From contig OX597821.1 in assembly GCA_951406725.2 (NCBI GenBank), forward strand, positions 50,778,001-50,842,000: DNA of 64,000 nucleotides, in the 5' to 3' direction. The notes under the pieces were generated by a model. The model saw only the letters and a list, made by a program, of their open reading frames with translations. It did not search any database and was not told the DNA's origin. Every line of letters begins with the position of its first letter. Positions within the stretch are counted from its first letter, which is position 1. Positions 1,891 through 52,319 of this stretch are shown piece after piece. Both the position numbers and the translations under genes were made by a program. This DNA comes from Octopus vulgaris (lineage: Eukaryota).

Positions 1891-3184
1891 CATGGTGGAG
1901 TAGAGAGAACGGACGTTTTTGAAAAATTCACAAAATCATTAATTTTAGCTGCAAGCAAATTTTATTGACATCAATGTGTTTGTATTGAAATAGCATTTGT
2001 CAAAATCAAGTGTGGAAAACAACATCCATCATATGGTGTCCGTTTTCATTGATGCATTTCTGAAGGCGTTCTTGGAAGTTGGCCTCCACTCTCTCCAGCA
2101 TTGCTCTGCCGATTTGGGCGATTTCCACACGAATATCTTCTTTCAAATCGTCCAATGTACGGGGCTTATGCACGTACACACGTGCCTTAAGGTTTCCCCA
2201 CAAGAAATAATCACACATGGACAAATCAGGGGACCGAAGAGAGGGCGCAGAACGTCCATTGATGATGTGGCTGTGTGGGCCGTCGCCCTATCGTGTTGAA
2301 ACCACACACGTCGAATAGGCATATGTTTTCGTCGTAATTCAGACACAAAGACGTAGTTTATCATCTCGATGTAACACTTAGAATTCACAGTAACAGCGTT
2401 TCCATTATTGTCTTCAAAAATGTAAGGACCAATGACGGTAGCTTTTCCAACAGTACACCTGACAGCCACTTTTAGGCTGTGTAGTGGTCTTTCGTGCAGT
2501 CCGCTCGGATTTTCGAAAGTCCAATGATGATAGTTCTGTTGATTCACCATACCATTGAGAAGAAAATGAGCTTCGTCCCTCATTAACAAAATGAGGTTAT
2601 CATTTGCCTCAAAAATTGCTTCCACCTGACGTGCGAAGTTAATCTGCTGTGTATAGTCCCATGGTTTCAACTGTTGCTCAATGACCAATTTATACGGATG
2701 GATATGCAGGTCTTCATGCAAAATATGCCTTACCGATTGATTATCAAGGCCAAGTTCAGTGGAATGCCTCAGAACAGAGCGATTCGGACTCCATATCAAA
2801 GCTAGTTTGATACATTCCACATTTTCCGGGATCCGTACCGTTCGTGGCGCCACCACCGGTCTCCTATTCATTAGTGTACCTCGAGTACGAAGTGCATTCA
2901 CTCACCCAATGTAAGATTGTGTTACGGGTGGAAACAGGCCGGTTTCGGTGAATGTTGAAGTGGCGTCAAAACTCACGCAGAACTACTGTGACAGACTCGT
3001 TATTCTTCACGTAAGTGTCGTAGGTAAACAGGCAATGCTCTATCGTCTACAGTATCATGGCTTTACCTGAAAAAGAAAATGCTCAAACACCAAGGACAGA
3101 ATGATATCTGCCGGACATATCTCCCTCCCCCTGGGGCTGAGTAATAGCCATTTCGAAAACGTCTGTTCTTTCTGCTCCACCCTG
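1891..3184 (-). mobile_element. Tc1/mariner DNA transposon (Tc3/rosa-like DDD transposase), full length and decayed
   Basis: ~34-bp imperfect TIRs (CATGGTGGAGTAGAGAGAACGGACGTTTTTGAAA; right end reverse-complements to CAGGGTGGAGCAGAAAGAACAGACGTTTTCGAAA) with TA on both flanks. ORFs 2143..2901 (DEAHF, WFQHD) and 2006..2224 (CDYFLWGNLKARVY). Confidence 0.93.
2006..3060 (-). pseudogene. Frameshifted mariner-family transposase
   Basis: HTH region, DEAHFLLNG, IGPYIFED, WFQHDRATAH and CDYFLWG motifs split across reading frames; deletion near the WPPRSPDL motif. Confidence 0.88.
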
Positions 3185-7660: not shown

Positions 7661-7799
7661 ACACATGTATTTATACATATATATATACGTATATATAAAT
7701 ATGTGTGTTTTATATACATATACTTATATATATGTATGTATATATATATATATACATGTATATATATGTACAAATGTATATATATATATATATATACAC

Positions 7800-7981
7800 A
7801 ACAAAAGGGACATTTGCCATTTGAATGTGGCTAGGGACAGGGCAGGGCGGTGGGGATGTTACTGATGCATTTAGCCCCAGGCGATCATCAACGTCACCAG
7901 ATAGGCTGACGCCATCACGGTGTCCTCTATCCTGCAAAGGGAGATCATTCCCCGAAGAAGCGGATGCCACATACGGACCCA

Positions 7982-7985
<4 letters not shown>
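7800..7985 (-). mobile_element. Truncated copy of the HHR-associated repeat (same family as 18505-19099)
   Basis: Reverse complement closely matches 18509-18690; begins in (TA)n at AAAC-CUGG-GUC-CGUAUG, the 3' half of the HHR. Confidence 0.88.
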
Positions 7986-8037
<52 letters not shown>

Positions 8038-8197: not shown

Positions 8198-10575
8198 AGC
8201 AGAGAAGAAGGTGGGATAAGGAGGCAAACCGAACGGTAACTGAATGCGGGATCAGGAGTGAACCCAGCAGAAGGGGATTCCGACAGCGAATGAAAGCAAA
8301 ATGGAATGAGATAGAACTCTTCGAAACAAGTGAACAACGGTCAGTCGACCGGGCAAGAGGAATAAGAGCAAAAGGGTGGTTTACAGACATGGAAAATAGA
8401 GAAGAGATAAAAAGGAAAGTAGAAGATAGAAGTAATACTTCACCAACAGTTATCGTGCCCAGTGATAACAGAAAAACGAAAGGCGGCAGTGAAGACGTAG
8501 AGCAAAGTGTAAATGTAAATGCATTCTCAGCAAATATATATATATATATATCACAAGGATACGATGATGATCAACAAGACAGAGGTGAGGACGCTGTGTC
8601 GATATATGAGAAATGGCCACGATCAAGCATCCCCTCCCAACCTGAGGTACATGGATCGACGCAAACTCAAAGTTGAAACAGAAGAGGTAGATTCGGTTCT
8701 TGGGCTTTTCCAGACGAGAAATATTTCTGAAAATAACAAGATTATTTGGGCTGCAGTTATGGTTACTGCAGATAGCGTTGGATGCAAAAGAAAAGAACAA
8801 ACAGAACGTAAAGAACTATTCTGGCGTAGACGAATTTGTGAGAAACAAAGTATTGTGTGGGCGCCCCCAGACGATGAAGTAGGCTAGCCCAATACGTAGA
8901 TATAGAGGGAGAAGTCTAGAGGTCGACAGACTAGAGTCAGTAGAGAGAAGAGTAGTAGAGGCATCGGAAGTGCGATATAACAATGGCGACGATGATTTCG
9001 TAGCTCACGCAGCCACTGTGTAGTATTGCGACATAACACAAAGTTAAAAAGATATTTAGGACAAGTGGATAGATTGAGAAGAAGGGAATTGCAGAACGAA
9101 AGCACAAGAATAATGCTGGAAAGAACATATAGAATAAGCGATAAAGGTTATGATGTGATAGAAGAATTGAAACAAAGAGTAGTAACAATCAAAGATATGA
9201 CAATAGAAAAAGACACTTCCGGCAACACAGATTGTTTGAAGCAAATCAGAAGAAACTGTTTCAGAAACTAGATGGGCATATACACGTAACAATGATACCA
9301 GATGCAGAGGAACGCAAGATATTCTGGAGAGGGATCTGGAACCAGCCTGTACAGCATAATGATGAAGCGGGGTGGCTCCATGAAACCCAAGATAGCTTAA
9401 GAAATAAAGAAGTCCAAGAAGACATAAAGATAACTACAGAAATGATGAAAAAGCAGTTAAGAAAATCCCCAAATTGGAAGAGCCCAGGACCGGATGCAGT
9501 ACAAGGTTATTGGATGAAGAAGCTGGAAGGGCTCCATTAAAGGATAGCACAACAGCGAGATGAGTGCTTGCATCAAGGCGCAGTACTCAGTTGGATGACA
9601 AAGGGAGGGATCCTGACAAAGGAAATGTTGCATCCAACTTTAGACCAATAACATACCTTCCGCTAATGTGGAAACTAATGTCAGATGCTTTAGCTGGTGA
9701 ACTGTATAGATACTTGGTAAAAATTGGGTTGCTACCCATTGAACAGAAAGGGAGCCAAAGAAATGAACCGAGGAACGAAGGATCAGCTCTTAATTGATAG
9801 TCTAATTATCAGGATCTGCAAGAGAAGACATGCAAACCTGAGCATGGCATGGATTGATTATCACTAAGCATACGATATGATACTACACTCCTGGATAATA
9901 AGAACAATAGAAATTTATGGAGTAGCAGAAAATATGAGAAACCTGATATGGAATAGCCTGAAATACTAACGCAATTGACAGCAGGGAAGCAAGTATTAGG
10001 ATAGATGAAAATCAAGTGCGTCCCCACTGATATTCGTGCTGGGAATGATCCCCTTGAGTGAAATACTACAGAAAACAAAGTTGGGTTATGATCTGGGAAA
10101 AGGTGAGGGAAAACTGAAATACTTGCTATTCAAGGACAACCTAAAGCTATTCGCAAAAACTGTATCAGAACTGGACAGCCTAGACCAGTCTGTGCGGAGT
10201 TTCTACAATGATATTAAGATTGAGTTTGGACTCTCAAAATGTGCTATGATGGTGATAAGACGAGGAAAGAATGGACAGAAGGCATATGTTTACCAAGTGG
10301 TGAAATGATGAAGACAATTCAACCTCAATCCAGCTATAAATACTTGGAAATACTTGAGGCAGGTGGAATCAAACACCACGACATGAAGGAAAAGGCAAAA
10401 AGAGAGTACTTGTGGCGAGTGAGAAAAATATTGGCTTCAAAGCTGAATGCCAGAAACATAATTTCGGCAAAAAACTCGCGCGCAATCGCAGTAGTTCGGT
10501 ATGGCGCTGGAGTCCTGAAGGAGACAAAAGAGGAGCTAAAGGAGACGAACAGGAAGTCAAGAAAGCTCCTATTTG
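8193..10575 (+). mobile_element. R4/Dong-clade non-LTR retrotransposon, decayed and 3'-truncated
   Basis: Starts directly after (TAA)n. N-terminal SEPSRRGFRQRMK...SEQRSVDRARGIRAKGWF; RT motifs PNWKSPGPDAVQGYWMK, SNFRPITYLPLMWKL, LLFKDNLKLFA, YKYLEILE; many stops and frameshifts. Confidence 0.92.
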
Positions 10576-10684
10576 ATAAAAGATGTTTTTTTTAAAATTT
10601 ATATATATATATTATATTTTGTGAAATTTGATTTAGTATTTTTAAATTGAATTTTTCCCTGTAAGTTTGGAATAATATTCCCTC

Positions 10685-17613: not shown

Positions 17614-17798
17614 CTCAGTATGCGGTACCGACTAATTGAGATACATTTTTATTTCTCTCTCTTCACCTTTCTCTCGTCGTCTATACTATCAGTAGGAGAA
17701 CGTATTCACGAAATAAATTTCCGTCTATTTTCCTGAGCGTAAGCTTAATACACTCTATTGTTTCGGATTTTACCTCAACTTAGTGCTGTTACCAATTT

Positions 17799-18050
17799 AA
17801 CGAAAAAATAGAGTACAGGACATACGAAACAAGGAAAATTCCCCTTCTTCAGTCGCCTTAATTTCATCTACTCCACGTGACCTTCAAAACGTGGAGTAGA
17901 TGAAATTAAGGCGACTGAAGAAGGGGAATTTTCCTTGTTTTGTATGTCCTGTACTTTATTTTTTCGTTGTTTTAAAAGAATGTCCATTTCCTTGGTTTTG
18001 TGTTTATGTTTTCGTTTCTCATTGTGTTCGACGTTTTTTTGGTGTCCTGC
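17799..18050. mobile_element. Penelope-like terminal-repeat remnant with 80-bp inverted repeat
   Basis: Arms 17799-17878 and 17889-17968 (2 mismatches), 10-nt spacer at CCTTCAAAACGT (decayed CGAAACGT); family assignment is inferred. Confidence 0.6.
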
Positions 18051-18221: not shown

Positions 18222-18412
18222 TCCTTTGTTCCTTTCCGAGCCACGCCTGGCTCATAGTGCCAGTTTCCCGGTTTCCTTGGCATATAGGTTCTCCACCTGG
18301 ACGGGACGCCGGTCCGTCGCAGGTGAGCTGCAAGATGCATGAAGAAAGAGTGAGAGAAAGTTGTGGCGAAAGAGTCAGCAGAAGTTCGGCATTACCTTCT
18401 GCCGGAACCGCG
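18222..18412 (-). mobile_element. Retroposon 3' fragment sharing the family C SINE tail
   Basis: CCCGGTTTCC...CCACCTGGACGGGACGCCGGTCCGTCGCAGG also present at ~43100-43156, but the upstream sequence differs. Confidence 0.65.
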
Positions 18413-19097
18413 GTGTTTGCCTATTATCAACGTGTTTGCCTATTATCAAGGTGTTTGCCTATTATCAACGTATGGCAGGCACCGCCCCTCGACGAACGAC
18501 TCTCCTTGAAACCTAGGTCCGTATGTGGCATCCACTTCTTCGGGGAATGATCTCCCTTTGCAGGCTAGAGGACGCCGTGATGGCGTCAGCCCTCCTGGTG
18601 ACGTTGATGATCGCCTGGGGCTAAATGCATCAGTAACACCCCCACCGCCCTGCCCTGTCCCTAGCCACATCCAGATGGCTAACGTCCCTTATGTTATGGA
18701 GTAGTTACTGTCTATATCTCGTTTAGAGAATTATTATTATTGCTGTCGAACGGATTTTCTACATCAGTAAATGTATTTACTGTGAAAATCTTTATATATA
18801 GCCTGCACAGAGAGTCGTTCGTCGAGGGGCGGTGCCTGCCATACGTTGATAATAGGCAAACACCTTGAAACCTAGGTCCGTATGTGGCATCCGCTTCTTC
18901 GGGGAATGATCTCCCTTTGCAGGCTAGAGGACGCCGTGATGGCGTCAGCCCTCCTAGTGACGTTGATGATCGCCTGGGGCTAAATGCATCAGTAACACCT
19001 CCACCGCCCTGCCCTGTCCCTAGCCACATCCAGATGGCTAACGTTATGTTATGGAGCAGTTACTGTCTATATCTCGTTTAGAGAATTATTATTATTG

Positions 19098-19099
<2 letters not shown>
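18413..19099 (+). mobile_element. Tandem 359-bp HHR-containing repeat (retrozyme-like or Penelope pseudo-LTR) with 5' inversion
   Basis: 18505-18744 repeated at 18864-19099; 18447-18504 is the inverted copy of 18810-18867; 19-bp triplication at 18413-18469. Confidence 0.8.
18840..18884 (+). ncRNA. Type I hammerhead ribozyme, U3-A8 core variant
   Basis: Stem I CAUACG/CGUAUG; core UUGAUAA; stem II AGG-CAAACA-CCU; GAAA; stem III AC-CUAG-GU with palindromic loop; GUC site at 18876-18878. Confidence 0.75.
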
Positions 19100-19150
<51 letters not shown>

Positions 19151-19474
19151 AGTGTGTGTGTGTATGTTTGTGTGTGAAGTTATGATAAACACAAGTTTGT
19201 ATCGTTTGTCTCCTAGATACTTTTGATCACTATATGCATTTGCAACATTTGCATTAGATATTCCAAGTGCAAGTGGATACTGAACTACAACAGATCATCA
19301 GGGGAGCACTTTATAGTTTTATGTCACACAGATCAAATGCCTTGTGCTATTAGAACAGTAGTAAGCATACCACTATACCGGCAGCAGGCTGGATGATGAT
19401 ATTCTACGCATAGTTCTAAACTCAACAGTAACGTAACAACCGTGCAGCTAACTGTAAACCCAATATTATATATA

Positions 19475-19842
19475 CAGGACGATTCAAAAATCTCCTTACA
19501 TAGGAAATTCTTTATAAAAAGAAACAGCTTATAAAGATCCTCTAGATCCCCTGATATGACCTCTCTTGATTTGTATCTTTGGGGGCATTTGAAAGACAGT
19601 GTATCGCGGAAAGATAAGACATAAAGCATTTGAAGGAACGCATCACCAACTCAGTTTGCACATGTATCACCAGATGTGCTATTACGAGTTCATAATGAGT
19701 GGGAGATAAATGTATTGCAATGTGTATTCAAAACAATGGTAACCATATAGAGTCTGTTAAATAAAAAAAACAACTGTTCTTATAAACTGTTTCTTATAAA
19801 AAGATAAATTGTCCCTAAGTATAGCGACTTTTGAATATCACC

Positions 19843-19845
<3 letters not shown>
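19475..19845 (+). mobile_element. Internally deleted mariner element
   Basis: Degenerate TIRs CAGGACGATTCAAAAATC / GACTTTTGAATATCACCCTG; RSPDMTSLDLYLWGHLKDSV remnant at ~19545-19605. Confidence 0.8.
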
Positions 19846-19898
<53 letters not shown>

Positions 19899-20371
19899 TC
19901 ATCATCATCTTCATCCAGTGTTTTAAATCCGGGTTTTGTCCCCGTTAACGGGGGTGGCCGGATCTACTTCAGTGCCATAGCAACCGATTGTGTATAGATA
20001 AATCCATAAATATATACATTTATATTTAGTATACCAATCGGTGAGTGTTACTTGTTTATAAAGGTGTTATCGTTAATGAAATAAAATGTAATATTCATCT
20101 ACTATACAATAGTAAACAGATTTATTGCTCACAAAAGATTGAGCACACGACCTTTTGTTCCCGAAACCGCCTACCATTTATGATGACTTAAGCAAATTCA
20201 AACACACACACATACACATCTATTTGCATGCGCGCCAAATAGATGTGTATGTGTGCATGTTTGAATTTATATCATATATCTATATGTGCGAGCGCGCACA
20301 CACAAATATTTGTTCAACACTTATTGAGTTGAGAACTACCGCCTTAATCAAATAATGGAATATGATAATTT

Positions 20372-20586
20372 GATTTCAAATTTTTGCACAAGATCAGCAA
20401 TTTCGGAGAAGCAGATAAGTCGATTACATCGACCCAAGTGTTTAACTGGTACTTATTTTATCGACCCAGAAAGGATGATCGGGAAAGTGAACCTGGGCAG
20501 AATTTGAACTCAGAGCATAAAAACGAATGAAATGTCACTATGCATTTTGCCCGACGGGCAAACGATTCTGCCAGCTTGCTACCTTA
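20372..20586 (-). mobile_element. SINE family A, full length and decayed
   Basis: Reverse complement of head, core and ...GTGCAAAAATTTGAAA tail. Confidence 0.82.
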
Positions 20587-20669
20587 TCTAATATATCAAT
20601 ATTACGAAGATATCGCAGTTTAGAGTAATTTTGTCATTAACCTGTAATCTCTCTATTTTTCCATTATAC

Positions 20670-20670
20670 A

Positions 20671-20756
<86 letters not shown>

Positions 20757-20786
20757 GAGAGAGAGAGAGCGAGAGAGAGAGAGAGA
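20670..20786. repeat. (GA)n microsatellite
   Basis: GA run. Confidence 0.95.
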
Positions 20787-21110
20787 GTAAAATCTATTTG
20801 ACAACGTAAATCGGCAGTCCTGATTAGGATGGTGTTACTACCTTTTTTAGCCACAGGGAAACATATTTTCCAGCTGGCTACCGACGCACGACTGTGTGCT
20901 TATACCTCGAATAAGGGAGCTAATGTCCCTACTCAGCCTTAAACGGTACTACGGACCATGGTTTCTGAGTTATTTCTCTTCATCGGCACAGGATAACCGT
21001 TGACCCGAGACGGCAGCACTAGGCCTTGTATTCTGGACGGCTGGCTGGCTGGATCCTCCAAAGAGAAAAGGAGACATTGATGATCCTTTGGAGGACATAC
21101 TTCCTCAGCT
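20787..21110 (-). mobile_element. Second, divergent HHR-containing repeat family
   Basis: Collinear conserved blocks with the 18840-19045 unit: GAAAC-N4-GUCCGUA, GGGA..UCCC hairpin, GCGUC, AGCC..GGCUAAA, AGUAACACC. Confidence 0.65.
20949..20991 (-). ncRNA. Type I hammerhead ribozyme (CCGAUGA core variant)
   Basis: Minus strand: CUGUG CCGAUGA A-GAG-AAAUAA-CUC-A GAAAC CAUG GUC CGUAG; stem I pairs with two G-U; palindromic CAUG loop. Confidence 0.68.
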
Positions 21111-21520
21111 GCGGTCACCACACAATAAAAAATCCACGGCGGAACTCGAAGTGATCCAACGAAGCTACACTAAGAAAATCGTCTCGATGCAACATGTCAG
21201 CTACTGGGAAAGACTTAAAGAATTAAAACTCTTCTCTCTGGAACGAAGGCGGGAGAGATATGCAGTGATATACATCTGGAAAATCCTAGAAGGTCTTGTA
21301 CCAAACTTTGGCATTGAAAGTTACTCAAACTGCAGAACGGGGCGCCACTGCATAGTACCTCACGGCAAGAAACATAGATAAGTGCAGCAGCACCAAACTC
21401 CCTCATTGACAAAATGCCACATATCAGAGGAGGTTCCAAATAATGGTGCAGCTCAGTCAACGGTGGTGCTCCAGCGTGACCGCAGCTTTGCAGCAAAACA
21501 TTTTGAAATTGTTCAAATAG
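21109..21520 (+). mobile_element. CR1-type LINE 3' fragment
   Basis: ELEVIQRSYTKKI...SYWERLKELKLFSLERRRERYAVIYIWKILEGLVPN; 3' tail GGTGGTGCTCCAGCGTGACCGCAGC. Confidence 0.9.
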
Positions 21521-33114: not shown

Positions 33115-33577
33115 ATACTCTGGGATATGCCGATACACACAGATAGAGAAATTAAGGCCAACAGACCAGATATAGTTGTCAGAGATCATGAAGAAAAAAA
33201 ATGCTTTCTAATTGATGTATCAATACCGGCTGATGACAACGTATCTCTAAAAGAAATGGAGAAACTCTCAAAATACAAAGACCTGGAAATAGAGGTAACT
33301 AGAATGTGGAATCTGAAAACAGAAACAATTCCTATCATAGTAGGTGCATTAGGCATGATAAAAAAATATTCAGACAAAGACATAACATACACACCAGGAC
33401 TTACAAACACATATAACATACAGAAAATTGCACTACTAGGCACTGCACACATCCTACACGGAACACTTTCCATACAATAACCATCAGAGCATCACAACAA
33501 ATCACAGCACATACCCAAGGCACACAGAGCTGCGCTCGGTAGTGAAGTGAAAGCACGCTATAAAAATAAAGCTACTG
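33115..33577 (+). mobile_element. R4/Dong LINE 3' end (REL endonuclease C-terminus and 3' UTR)
   Basis: ILWDMPIHTDREIKANRPDIVV...LIDVSIP...KLSKYKDL; flanked by (TAA)n; near-identical to 34829-35297. Confidence 0.93.
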
Positions 33578-33595
33578 AATAATAATAATAACAAT

Positions 33596-34197
33596 GGTTT
33601 CGAATTTTGACACAGGGGTAGAAGTTTTGTTGGAGGGTATGAGTCGATTAGATCAACCGCAGTGTTCAACTGGTACTTAGTTTAACGATCTCAAAGTATG
33701 AAAGGTAAAGTCAACCTCGGCGTAATTTGAACTCAGAACGTAGCAACGGGCGAAATACCGCAATAATGATAATAATGATTTCAGATTTTACCACAAGGGC
33801 AGCCATTTTAGGGGACGAGATAAGTCGATTATATCGACCCCAGTGTTTCACTGGTACTTAATTTATCGAAGGATGAAAGGCAAAATCGCAATTTGAACTC
33901 AGCGCGTAAAGATGGGCAAAATACTGCTAAGCATTTTGCCCGAAGTATTAGTGAATCTGCCAGCTCGCCACCTTAGTAGTAATAATAATAATGGTTTCAA
34001 ATTTTGCCACAGGGCAGCCATTTTAGGGTAGGGTAGAGGACTAAGCGATTATATTGACCCCAGTGTTTCACTAGTACTTAATTTATTGACCCCGAAAGGA
34101 TGAAAGGTAAAGTCGACTTCGGCGGAATTTGAACTCAGAACGTAACGACGTAAGCATTTTGCCCGGCGTGCAAACAATTTTGCCAGCTCGCTGCCTC
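33596..34197 (-). mobile_element. Three family A SINEs (-) in TAA-rich spacers
   Basis: Copies at ~33596-33760, 33778-33974 and 33993-34197. Confidence 0.85.
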
Positions 34198-34269
<72 letters not shown>

Positions 34270-34278
34270 TGTAATAAT

Positions 34279-34368
<90 letters not shown>

Positions 34369-34372
34369 AAAA

Positions 34373-35294
34373 AAAAAAATGAAATCCAAACTAAAAATAG
34401 AACAGCAACGAACCATGATAAAACGATGGCAAGAAAAGCCCCTTCATGGTAAATACTGGACTAAACTAAACGCAAAAGAAATAGACAAAGAAAAATCCCA
34501 GCAATGGTTGAGAAGCTCAGGACTCAAAGCAGAAACAGAGGGATTTTTAATTGCAGCACAAGACCAAAGCCTCCCCACCAGAAATTACCAAAAACATGTA
34601 ATGAAAAGAAATATTACAAGTAACTGCAGAATATGTGGAGATGGACAAGAAACAATAAATCATATTATTTCTAGCTGCCCAGTCCTGGCTAAGAAGGAAT
34701 ATATTCACAGACATGACAGAGTTGGAACTTACATACATTGGAAGCTATGCCAACATTATGGAATAACAACAGAAAAAAGATGGTATAGGCACACACCAGA
34801 AAAGGTCACAGAAAACGAGAAAGCAACCATACTCTGGGATATGCCGATACACACAGATAGAGAAATTAAGGCCAACAGACCAGATACAGTTGTCAGAGAC
34901 CATGAAGAAAAAAAATGCTTTCTAATTGATGTATCAATACCGGCAGATGACAACGTGTCTCTAAAAGAAATGGAGAAACTCTCAAAATACAAAGACCTGG
35001 AAATAGAGGTAACTAGAATGTGGAATCTGAAAACAGAAACAATTCCTATCATAGTAGGTGCATTAGGCATGATAAAAAAATATTCAGACAAATACATAAC
35101 AAAAACACCAGGACTTACAAACACATATAACATACAGAAAATTGCACTACTAGGCACTGCACACATCCTACGCAGAACACTTTCCATACAATAACCATCA
35201 GAGCATCACAACAAATCACAGCACATACCCAAGGCACACAGAGCTGCGCTCGGTAGTGAAGTGAAAGCACGCTATAAAAATAAAAATAAAACTA

Positions 35295-50778: not shown

Positions 50779-52319
50779 CTGTTACGGCTATGCATAAGGG
50801 TCAGCAGGAACAAGTGTATTGAAATATTTATTATAGAAGATTATCAAAGCGTTGAGACTAGATATTTTACACATATTTAAATATAATAAATACCCATCTT
50901 CCATGAAAATTTCAAGTGAATGGAATAAATATTTCGTAAGTTATGAGGAAATAAACAAAGAATCTTCCAAACTGCAACGGCCAAAAGTTAAGGGCCACTT
51001 AGAAAAATAATGGAAAATGGAACAAGAACAAAAAAGAACCCTTACTATTAATATTTTGTGAATATCCCTTTACTATCAATGACCTCCTGACATCTGTTAC
51101 CACAGGACTGAACTAATTTCTTGCAAAATGATGGAGTAATATTGTTCCATCGTTTTTCAATAACTCCCAGAGTTGGTTCGTTGTATTTCTGCCTCGTGCT
51201 TCCAAATATCTTTTGTATAGAGTTGAGATCAAGACTTTGTGGTGGCTAGTCCATGAGATCAACCCCTTCATCACTCAAAGTACCTATAATTCTCTTCGTA
51301 GTGTGACAGGGAGCGTTGAACTGACGAGGGTAGGAGATGTAGAAGGGCATGCAGTCTAAGTATCTGTTTGTAGATTTCAGCATTGACAGCTCCCTGTAAA
51401 TGAATAAGTGGACAAGGATCAACAGCAGAAATCACTCCCCATACCATTATATTGCCTCCTCCATATTTCACTGTCTTCTTAACACATGCACGGGTTAACT
51501 TTTCGCCACTTCTTCGTCGAATGCACATCCCACCATCGGAACCAATCACATTAAGTTTCGTTTCGTCGCTCAAATGAACCGGCGACCATTGTTCTTCTGT
51601 CCAAATGACATATTCGTGAGCAAAACGAAGATGGGCTCTATGCTTCTTCTTGGAGATCAGAGGTTTCTTTGTCGGTGCCCGAGCAAGCAACCCAGAACCT
51701 CGTAACCTCCTAGAAACTGTTTTGAGCGATATGTTGACATCGAAAGTGTGGTTAAACTCGCGGGATTTCGCAGCAGCACTCTTAAACCTATCCTTCAGTG
51801 ATTTTCTAACCATAATACAATCCTGTTTTAGTGAAGTTTTACGAGGTCTACCAAGTTTTGGTTTTAGCATCTGTCGATCTTGATGACTTAGAACGAACTA
51901 CAATTCGTTGTACAACACTTCTAGACATTCTTACAGTTGTTGCTATCACAGAATTTGACTTGCCCACTTAGTGAAGGCACACAATCCTTTGTTTTTCATC
52001 ACAGGACACCGGTCGTCTCTCACGAGCCGCCATGTTGACAGATAACTGTTTCAATAATGTAAGATCATAAGAAGTAACTGTTAGCCCATTAACAGTCTTC
52101 TAAACAATAAATACCTCGGCTAGTAGTCCATTTTTTTCTAAGTAACCGTTAACCCTTGGCCGTTGCAATTTGCAACATTGTTTATTTCCTCATAACTTGA
52201 AATTTTCCCGAAGGGTAGATATTAGATATATCTAAATATGTGTAAAATATTTAGTCTCTTCTGTAATAACTATTTCAATACACTTCTTCTTACTTACCCT
52301 TATATTATGGCCGCTATTG
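50779..52319 (-). mobile_element. Tc1-family transposon with long (~200-240 bp) IR/DR-type TIRs, decayed
   Basis: TA flanks in (TACA)n; TIR similarity 50779-51015 vs 52127-52319; ORF 51271..51870 with GRPRKT, HTH, LSDETKLN, KYGGGNIMVWG. Confidence 0.93.
51040..52033 (-). pseudogene. Tc1 transposase pseudogene
   Basis: Open segment 51271..51870; flanking parts (including PPQSLDLNSI) disrupted by stops and frameshifts. Confidence 0.85.

Follow-up and report, generated by a model that had tools for sequence, protein, structure and literature searches.

A covarying predicted RNA fold and two fixed insertion ends in seven retrozyme families of the octopus genome

What kind of element carries a hammerhead ribozyme followed by a series of hairpins, and what those hairpins might serve for, is the question raised by a 64,000-nt stretch of Octopus vulgaris DNA (NCBI GenBank assembly GCA_951406725.2, contig OX597821.1, positions 50,778,001 to 50,842,000; this whole stretch is the window, and its own numbering is used throughout). 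An earlier note on the window had listed GGGA/UCCC, GCAC/GUGC and UAGCCA/UGGCUA hairpins downstream of a hammerhead core and the same order in a second unit at 18880-19000, and had proposed a conserved ~130-nt RNA domain 3' of the cleavage site that could recruit a reverse transcriptase (RT) or stabilize the RNA. All of the listed motifs were found on the minus strand at 20986-20831, and the unit at 18880-19000 (plus strand) has the same motif order as the minus-strand unit, here assigned to family B. The two window units aligned with a local score of 55.5, compared with 22.4 ± 3.8 for shuffled sequence, a score reached by 0 of 2000 dinucleotide shuffles, and family B was indeed related to the 18.9-kb family (58% over 254 nt, E = 1e-7). 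The homology was not limited to ~130 nt, as had been supposed, but covered the whole ~350-nt unit. With a non-coding tandem unit in the 150-450 bp range, a type I hammerhead, a GC content below 50% and a highly self-paired monomer, the family B repeat is a non-long-terminal-repeat (non-LTR) retrozyme by the published description (PMC7229834, PMC4209133).

Five further families were found in the source genome (2.8 Gb, 227 contigs, microsatellite-dense), those designated C to G having been exposed by profile searches of fetched loci, so that seven related families (A-G) could be compared. Their units measure 350-360 nt (350 nt in B, 356 nt in A), are non-coding with a GC content of 0.41-0.48, carry one type I hammerhead each and occur in tandem copies in all seven families; pairwise identity among the six families compared (A-F) was 50-71%. 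First-look searches returned 1149 candidates for B (40 of them scored), 1281 for A and 2533-3025 for each of C-G, figures that are not copy numbers and may overlap between families. The best-matching copies differed from their own consensus by 1.7-11.5%, and the families therefore differ in age. Metagenome contigs and viral contigs contained no exact pattern match to relatives. Among read sets containing the repeat, no run was on record as RNA, and although contigs from four runs of presumed RNA origin match parts of family A, they are uninformative on expression level, strand, ends and circularity. A short interspersed element driven by a tRNA or small nuclear RNA promoter was rejected: there was no tRNA gene in 7 loci, and the local U6 upstream element was unmatched in 7 of 7 consensus sequences (best scores of 0.8-8.8 versus 24-28 at true sites). 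In the U6 genes themselves (L237, L239, L244-L247) a common upstream element (TATGCWAATKAG..) is located near -78 and the TATA box near -30, and several of these genes lie in a ~1.1-kb tandem array on C1.

Folded alone, each of the seven consensus sequences is predicted to adopt one plan, a rod followed by a branched cap, with minimum free energy z-scores of -4.0 to -10.2 (40 shuffles per family). The predicted rod is imperfect, about 50 bp long, extends stem I and bears the hammerhead at its tip in every family; the cap consists of hairpins H1 and H2, a junction closed by the long-range helix P3 that encloses hairpins H3a and H3b and the insertion end site E1 (see below), a variable tail region and hairpin H6. 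Covariation was scored by taking the structure from one family and applying it to the other six in a sequence-only alignment, with 500 nulls in which partner columns of the same base type were drawn at random. Doubly changed cells were canonical in 0.55-0.79 of cases versus 0.42-0.46 in the nulls, and six of the seven reference structures beat all 500 nulls, the exception being D (0.55, null maximum 0.59); thus covariation in multi-family alignments, which the earlier note had asked for, exceeded our own null models. RNAalifold applied to 13 real copies recovered H1, H2 and H3b, with 10 of 20 pairs compensated. A six-helix structure imposed on 13 real copies was paired in 89.8% of 403 cells, and compensation was seen in 12 of its 32 pairs; none of 500 shuffles reached this value and slid controls gave 31-49%, although the shuffle ignores relatedness and the structure was itself derived from the same families. 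By helix, compensated pairs numbered 5 of 6 in inner H2, 4 of 6 in H6, 11 of 12 in stem I and 2 of 5 in H3b, counts taken from a separate structure-weighted alignment that leans towards structure, and the statistics relied on here are those from the sequence-only alignments.

These results support a conserved, covarying structured region 3' of the predicted cleavage site, although this region is not free-standing as first proposed but caps the fold of the whole monomer. The second and third of the listed hairpins, corresponding to H1 and H2, are better conserved than any other segment of the unit (19 of their 54 columns are invariant, and mean identity is 0.70, compared with 0.68 in the hammerhead core and 0.48-0.60 in other parts), a pattern that fits a candidate sequence-and-shape binding site. 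The first, GGGA/UCCC, lies outside the predicted fold: it had a probability of 0.000 as a local hairpin in 7 of 7 full monomers, because both of its strands belong to the long rod, and it was absent from the consensus fold of real copies, so that it can be ruled out as part of the main fold. In isolation it beat shuffles in two of seven families (C, p = 0.002; G, p = 0.022; compared with 0.29 in B and 0.79 in F), and it is possible that it forms as a folding intermediate. The GCAC/GUGC pairing reflects substitutions of the window copy and is an artefact as a family feature, the family B consensus having GACGC/GCGUC, as does family A. A scan of the window against Rfam gave nothing at gathering score; at E ≤ 10, the interval 18300-21200 returned 33 matches, none to a hammerhead, which comprised microsatellite-driven matches to microRNA (miRNA) models and other weak matches. 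A smaller inverted repeat at 20192-20270 underlies miRNA-model matches.

The type I hammerhead core (C/U-U/C-GA-N-G/A-A ... GAAA ... UH) with an open stem I was present in all seven consensus sequences, three of which have the U3-A8 covariant (as in PMC4209133). Proximal stem I was canonical in 39 of 42 cells, with 6 of 6 pairs compensated. As the earlier note had observed for two families, the stem III loop differs yet stays palindromic, and this held in all seven families, with six loop sequences (CUAG in A and E; CAUG, UCGA, CGCG, AU and UA) for which intermolecular helices of 6-8 bp are predicted. Because stem III is weak and palindromic, cleavage as a dimer would be expected, and these features point to it. 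A subfamily of A (L039, L048, L057-L060) has CUGG in place of CUAG, a loop that is self-complementary via G-U pairs.

The evidence on mobilization comes from the anatomy of 171 insertion clusters, examined after duplicate-fetched loci had been dropped. Outer 3' ends (n = 249) fell mostly on two sites, 76 at E1 and 121 at E2, with 52 elsewhere, and a microsatellite abutted 127 of the 197 ends on E1 or E2 versus 9 of the 52 other ends. In each of the seven families, E1 follows H3b at a distance of 15-18 nt and precedes the 3' strand of P3 by 6-9 nt. The tail between E1 and E2 measures 44-60 nt; E1 ends are few in family C. Two outward-facing arms were present in 80 insertions, both ends of which lay on E1 or E2 in 43. 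Among these 43 classifiable inverted insertions, 42 paired an E1 with an E2 end, one was E1+E1 and none was E2+E2, where 21.5 mixed pairs were expected (p about 5e-12; the end windows were set from the same data, and the queries preselected the end of one arm). Non-consensus variants were common to opposite arms in 18-50% of cases versus 7-17% for unrelated loci, a 2- to 5-fold difference seen in all seven families (57 of 113 for opposite arms versus 712 of 7789 for other loci in family A); both arms therefore derive from one RNA or one source locus. The sole E1+E1 insertion (L036:1178-2188) consists of a family A array, a piece of family D joined to it in the same orientation and, after this piece, an inverted D arm. 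Six more clusters mix families (L011, L130, L134, L142, L155, L177), some of which are adjacent separate insertions or misassigned subfamilies.

At the other end of the segments, the 5' termini were scattered: a start no more than 3 nt from the cleavage site was seen in only 3 of 262 segments (a uniform distribution would give 5.9), and 200 of the 262 crossed that site (partly an effect of the queries), with 24 crossing it two or three times. The longest segment was 938 nt, and arrays comprised 1-3 units, direct or inverted. Scattered 5' ends and junction crossing imply that the cleaved linear monomer was not the usual template, and since copies continue past the cleavage site, a circular or uncleaved template is likely. 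Taken together, the insertions carry the Penelope-type signature of 5' truncation, partial tandems, an inverted copy, an optional tail and an AT-rich or microsatellite target.

A GIY-YIG search of the genome, in which 150 of 6136 candidates were scored, retrieved Penelope-like elements with an RT and a C-terminal endonuclease, many of them with an open 781-aa frame, and these autonomous elements carry the cysteine linker motif described for Neptune/Nematis (PMC8557442). They terminate before (TA)n at two sites separated by 40 nt, for which 21 and 9 hits were counted in partly duplicated loci, and the three inverted autonomous elements seen (L073, L096, L098) were all E1+E2. Their sampled pseudo-LTRs (pLTRs) contain a minimal hammerhead and an AT-rich end. 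The element at L094:268-4960 is recently active, with copies up to 99% alike; its open 781-aa RT and GIY-YIG frame is overlapped by an upstream frame of 479 aa, for which no convincing match in Pfam was obtained, and the element also has a 40-nt tail and a minimal U3-A8 hammerhead whose palindrome is CAUG. A second family (L098:1810-4985) has an inverted 5' arm and a minimal hammerhead with a GUAC palindrome, and its AC-rich tail of about 28 nt is present on one arm only. A physical join between the two kinds of element was found at L132:888-1737, where a Penelope RT fragment, broken in the middle of its open reading frame (ORF), is followed without a spacer by a family C array, the whole being bounded by (TA)n on both sides; no Penelope sequence resumes past the array, and a template switch within one insertion event is the probable origin. 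The repeat itself was rejected as an autonomous Penelope-like element, i.e., an RT and GIY-YIG ORF flanked by pLTRs, with coding sequence upstream in 1 of 298 arms. In vitro, the anole Penelope protein, a predicted dimer, cuts and extends both DNA strands and initiates reverse transcription at two internal positions flanking the tail (PMC11167929), and in Penelope-like elements the tail is often found at only one end (PMC8557442). Naiads, which also favour (TA)n and have been reported in Octopus (PMC8557442), remain mobilizer candidates for these two reasons.

We consider it very probable that the element is a Penelope-mobilized retrozyme; what remains doubtful is the role of the domain and not mobilization by Penelope. 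The reading that we prefer, with a probability of roughly 0.6, is that the units give rise to an RNA of 350 nt, probably circular, and that its branched cap both recruits and positions a Penelope RT-endonuclease, with one priming event each at E1 and E2 from both nicked strands of a TA repeat. Recruitment by the domain gains indirect support because E1 and E2 lie at constant positions within the branched domain in seven families. In the corresponding cycle, tandem arrays would be transcribed, and cleavage would follow the pairing of two hammerheads via the palindromic loops of stem III; the ~350-nt monomer, its ends held together by the rod, would then be ligated to a circle, as inferred from other retrozymes. 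A Penelope protein would bind the branched cap and nick a (TA)n site on both strands, and priming would presumably occur one time at each of E1 and E2, the two events using either a single RNA or RNA from one source locus. The RT would pass the cleavage junction one to three times, a crossing that is seen in the copies, and the joining of two 5'-truncated arms would yield direct and inverted arrays. A stronger version, which we put forward tentatively and would not ourselves bet on, is that the cap is the dedicated landing pad of a circular RNA parasite and seats a dimeric Penelope RT-endonuclease whose two active sites would prime at E1 and E2 on one circle, using both nicked DNA strands. If that were true, the 42-of-43 rule would be the general explanation of the one-sided tail and 5' inversion of Penelope elements, and target-primed insertion into TA repeats would have, in the 350-nt circle, a minimal template that can be reloaded.

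Several observations weigh against the preferred reading. H1 and outer H2 lie 60-115 nt from E1 and have only one compensated pair each, their conservation being mainly in sequence, and one-sided changes were not enriched for pairing in the cross-family test. At least one end lay elsewhere in 37 of the 80 two-arm insertions, the E1+E2 tally was drawn with the preselected arm end and data-derived end windows described above, and the RT chimera is a single case among 298 arms. A profile of the domain had no match in 50 GIY-YIG loci (L061-L110), barring separate retrozyme insertions, and in 14 further autonomous loci its best E was 0.057; thus no recognition signal common to the retrozymes and the sampled autonomous elements was identified. 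Finally, hammerhead cleavage was dispensable for insertion of the anole element in vitro (PMC11167929).

The same facts can be arranged differently, and the alternatives are not all mutually exclusive. The distance of H1-H2 from the start sites, together with the copying of sampled autonomous elements that lack these hairpins, would agree with a Penelope-mobilized retrozyme whose RT needs only sequence local to E1 and E2 and in which H1-H2 and the rod stabilize the RNA, promote its ligation, control the hammerhead or bind a host protein. Most of the pairing lies in the rod, which connects the two cleaved ends, and the circles of other retrozymes are abundant, with a high degree of self-pairing (PMC7229834). 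We regard this role as somewhat improbable: the distances from E1 and E2 to H3b and P3 are fixed across families that are only 50-71% alike, and the tail is anchored to the same junction through P3. It is also unlikely, in our estimate, that the template is an uncleaved multimeric transcript on which the hammerhead is a passenger or trims the 5' end, with no circle formed. Junction-crossing copies fit such a transcript equally well, the sampled arrays are short (938 nt at most), and hammerhead mutants of the anole element were without effect on insertion (PMC11167929), but the catalytic core and loop palindromy are kept in all seven families, unit length is held at 350-360 nt, and relatives in mussel, coral and axolotl form circles (PMC7229834).

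The units might instead be pLTRs of unsampled autonomous Penelope families and not independent elements, a proposal that draws on the identity of their insertion signature with that of autonomous elements, on the relationship of Xenopus retrozymes to pLTRs (bioRxiv 10.64898/2026.07.22.740005) and on the fact that scoring covered just 150 of the 6136 candidates. Because Penelope coding sequence stands directly upstream in only 1 of 298 arms, where it is broken mid-ORF, tandem units succeed one another without an ORF, and the inspected pLTRs contain a minimal hammerhead and an AT-rich end, we judge this quite unlikely. A further reading, in which RNA structure is not under selection and the shared blocks stem from common descent or from an internal promoter acting at the DNA level, seems highly improbable. 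In its favour, H1 and outer H2 owe their conservation mainly to sequence, and six families have a TATA-like run ahead of the rod, but compensatory changes exceed the nulls, and the searches for a U6 upstream element in the seven consensus sequences and for tRNA genes in seven loci were negative.

Three copies lie in the window. The family B copy (20784..21029, minus strand, as are its parts below) is 5'-truncated, runs from monomer position 275 through its one hammerhead to position 171 and is 91.9% identical to the family consensus (~8% diverged). Its type I hammerhead (20942..20992) begins with the stem I 5' strand at 20992-20987 and CCGAUGA at 20986-20980, continues with stem II and GAAA-C-CAUG-G-UC at 20965-20954, cleavage being predicted after 20954; the stem I 3' strand is weakened by one substitution and one deleted base. 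The predicted rod that extends stem I occupies 20902..21029, including GGGA..UCCC at 20929-20915, and the truncation removed the outermost part of its upstream strand. H1 (20883..20899; GACGC/GCGUC in the family) is damaged in this copy, and H2 (UAGCCA..UGGCUA, 20848..20880) has an outer stem, an internal loop (4x3 in six families) and an inner stem. AGUAAC (AGUAACACC, 20831..20839) forms the 5' strand of P3 in the predicted folds, and the partner strand (GUUACU) sits in the tail, past the end of the copy; within the P3 junction lie the variable H3a and the conserved H3b (GCCA/UGGC) at 20799..20830. The copy stops at E1 (20784), the putative first reverse-transcription start, and its 3' end adjoins a (CT)n microsatellite at 20670..20787. 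Its fold was no better than that of shuffles (z = -0.77). It is an E1 product with one arm and a single hammerhead, is probably dead, and by itself is ordinary repeat debris.

The family A array (18504..19093, plus strand) spans ~1.7 units and crosses two hammerhead junctions, the first hammerhead being without its 5' half; it terminates at E2, adjoining (TA)n at 19099-19147, and a short inverted family A piece (18446..18504, minus strand) lies at its 5' junction. A third copy, also of family A and 5'-truncated (7797..7986, minus strand), ends at E1 between TA-rich repeats. Elsewhere in the window, a near-perfect long inverted repeat with arms of about 85 bp lies at 17780-17960. An ORF fragment that abuts the 5' end of the family B copy (21004-21381, plus strand) resembles the 3' part of a CR1/L2-type long interspersed element; the broken frames with a strong A skew at 8500-10600 and 33200-35200 (plus strand) resemble those of non-LTR retrotransposons, and fragments at 2143-2901 and 51271-51897 (minus strand) presumably derive from Tc1/mariner-like transposases.

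The enzyme that moves animal retrozymes, and what it recognizes, had been an open question, and a 2020 review described animal retrozymes as lacking a conserved motif that would indicate the mobilizer (PMC7761336). Both the retrozyme class and its Penelope link are already published (PMC7229834; bioRxiv 10.64898/2026.07.22.740005); our literature search found no account of the octopus families, the covarying fold or the E1+E2 rule, although the supplements of PMC7229834 and of the preprint, Repbase or Dfam may hold them. The octopus genome offers seven diverged families with one covarying fold, start sites resolved to the base and a strict pairing of E1 with E2 in inverted insertions, and it also supplies recently active autonomous candidates with open 781-aa frames. 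Because the fold, the start sites, the end pairing and the active candidates are combined in one genome, RT recognition and the origin of the Penelope tail become testable in a published in vitro assay (PMC11167929).

Among known systems, the animal non-LTR retrozymes (350-390 bp in mussel, 330/350 bp in axolotl; Cervera & de la Pena 2020, PMC7229834) resemble the octopus families in their ~350-nt non-coding tandem units with a GC content below 50% and a self-paired predicted monomer, in a type I hammerhead whose stem III is weak and bears a palindromic loop, and in their coexistence with Penelope-like elements. The octopus families differ in a covariation-supported fold common to seven families and in dispersed direct or inverted arrays of 1-3 units with two fixed ends in microsatellites, and circles and cleavage are here conjectural. 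With the endonuclease-containing (EN+) Penelope-like elements Neptune, Nematis and Naiad (Craig et al. 2021, PMC8557442; Frangieh et al. 2024, PMC11167929) they share partial tandems, an inverted 5'-truncated copy, a tail that is often confined to one end, a (TA)n preference and two internal RT start sites. They differ from these elements in having no ORF, a tail of 44-60 nt versus 30-40 nt, a full hammerhead on a ~50-bp rod where the EN+ elements have a minimal one, and the branched domain, which was not detected in the sampled autonomous families. Closest in interpretation are the retrozymes of Xenopus (Li, Clavereau & Pollet 2026, bioRxiv 10.64898/2026.07.22.740005), for which Penelope-like elements were likewise proposed as the mobilizer; pLTR homology of the kind described there was not found in the octopus sample. 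The Xenopus case was built on co-occurrence and pLTR homology in vertebrates, whereas that for the octopus rests on insertion anatomy, an RT chimera and RNA covariation.
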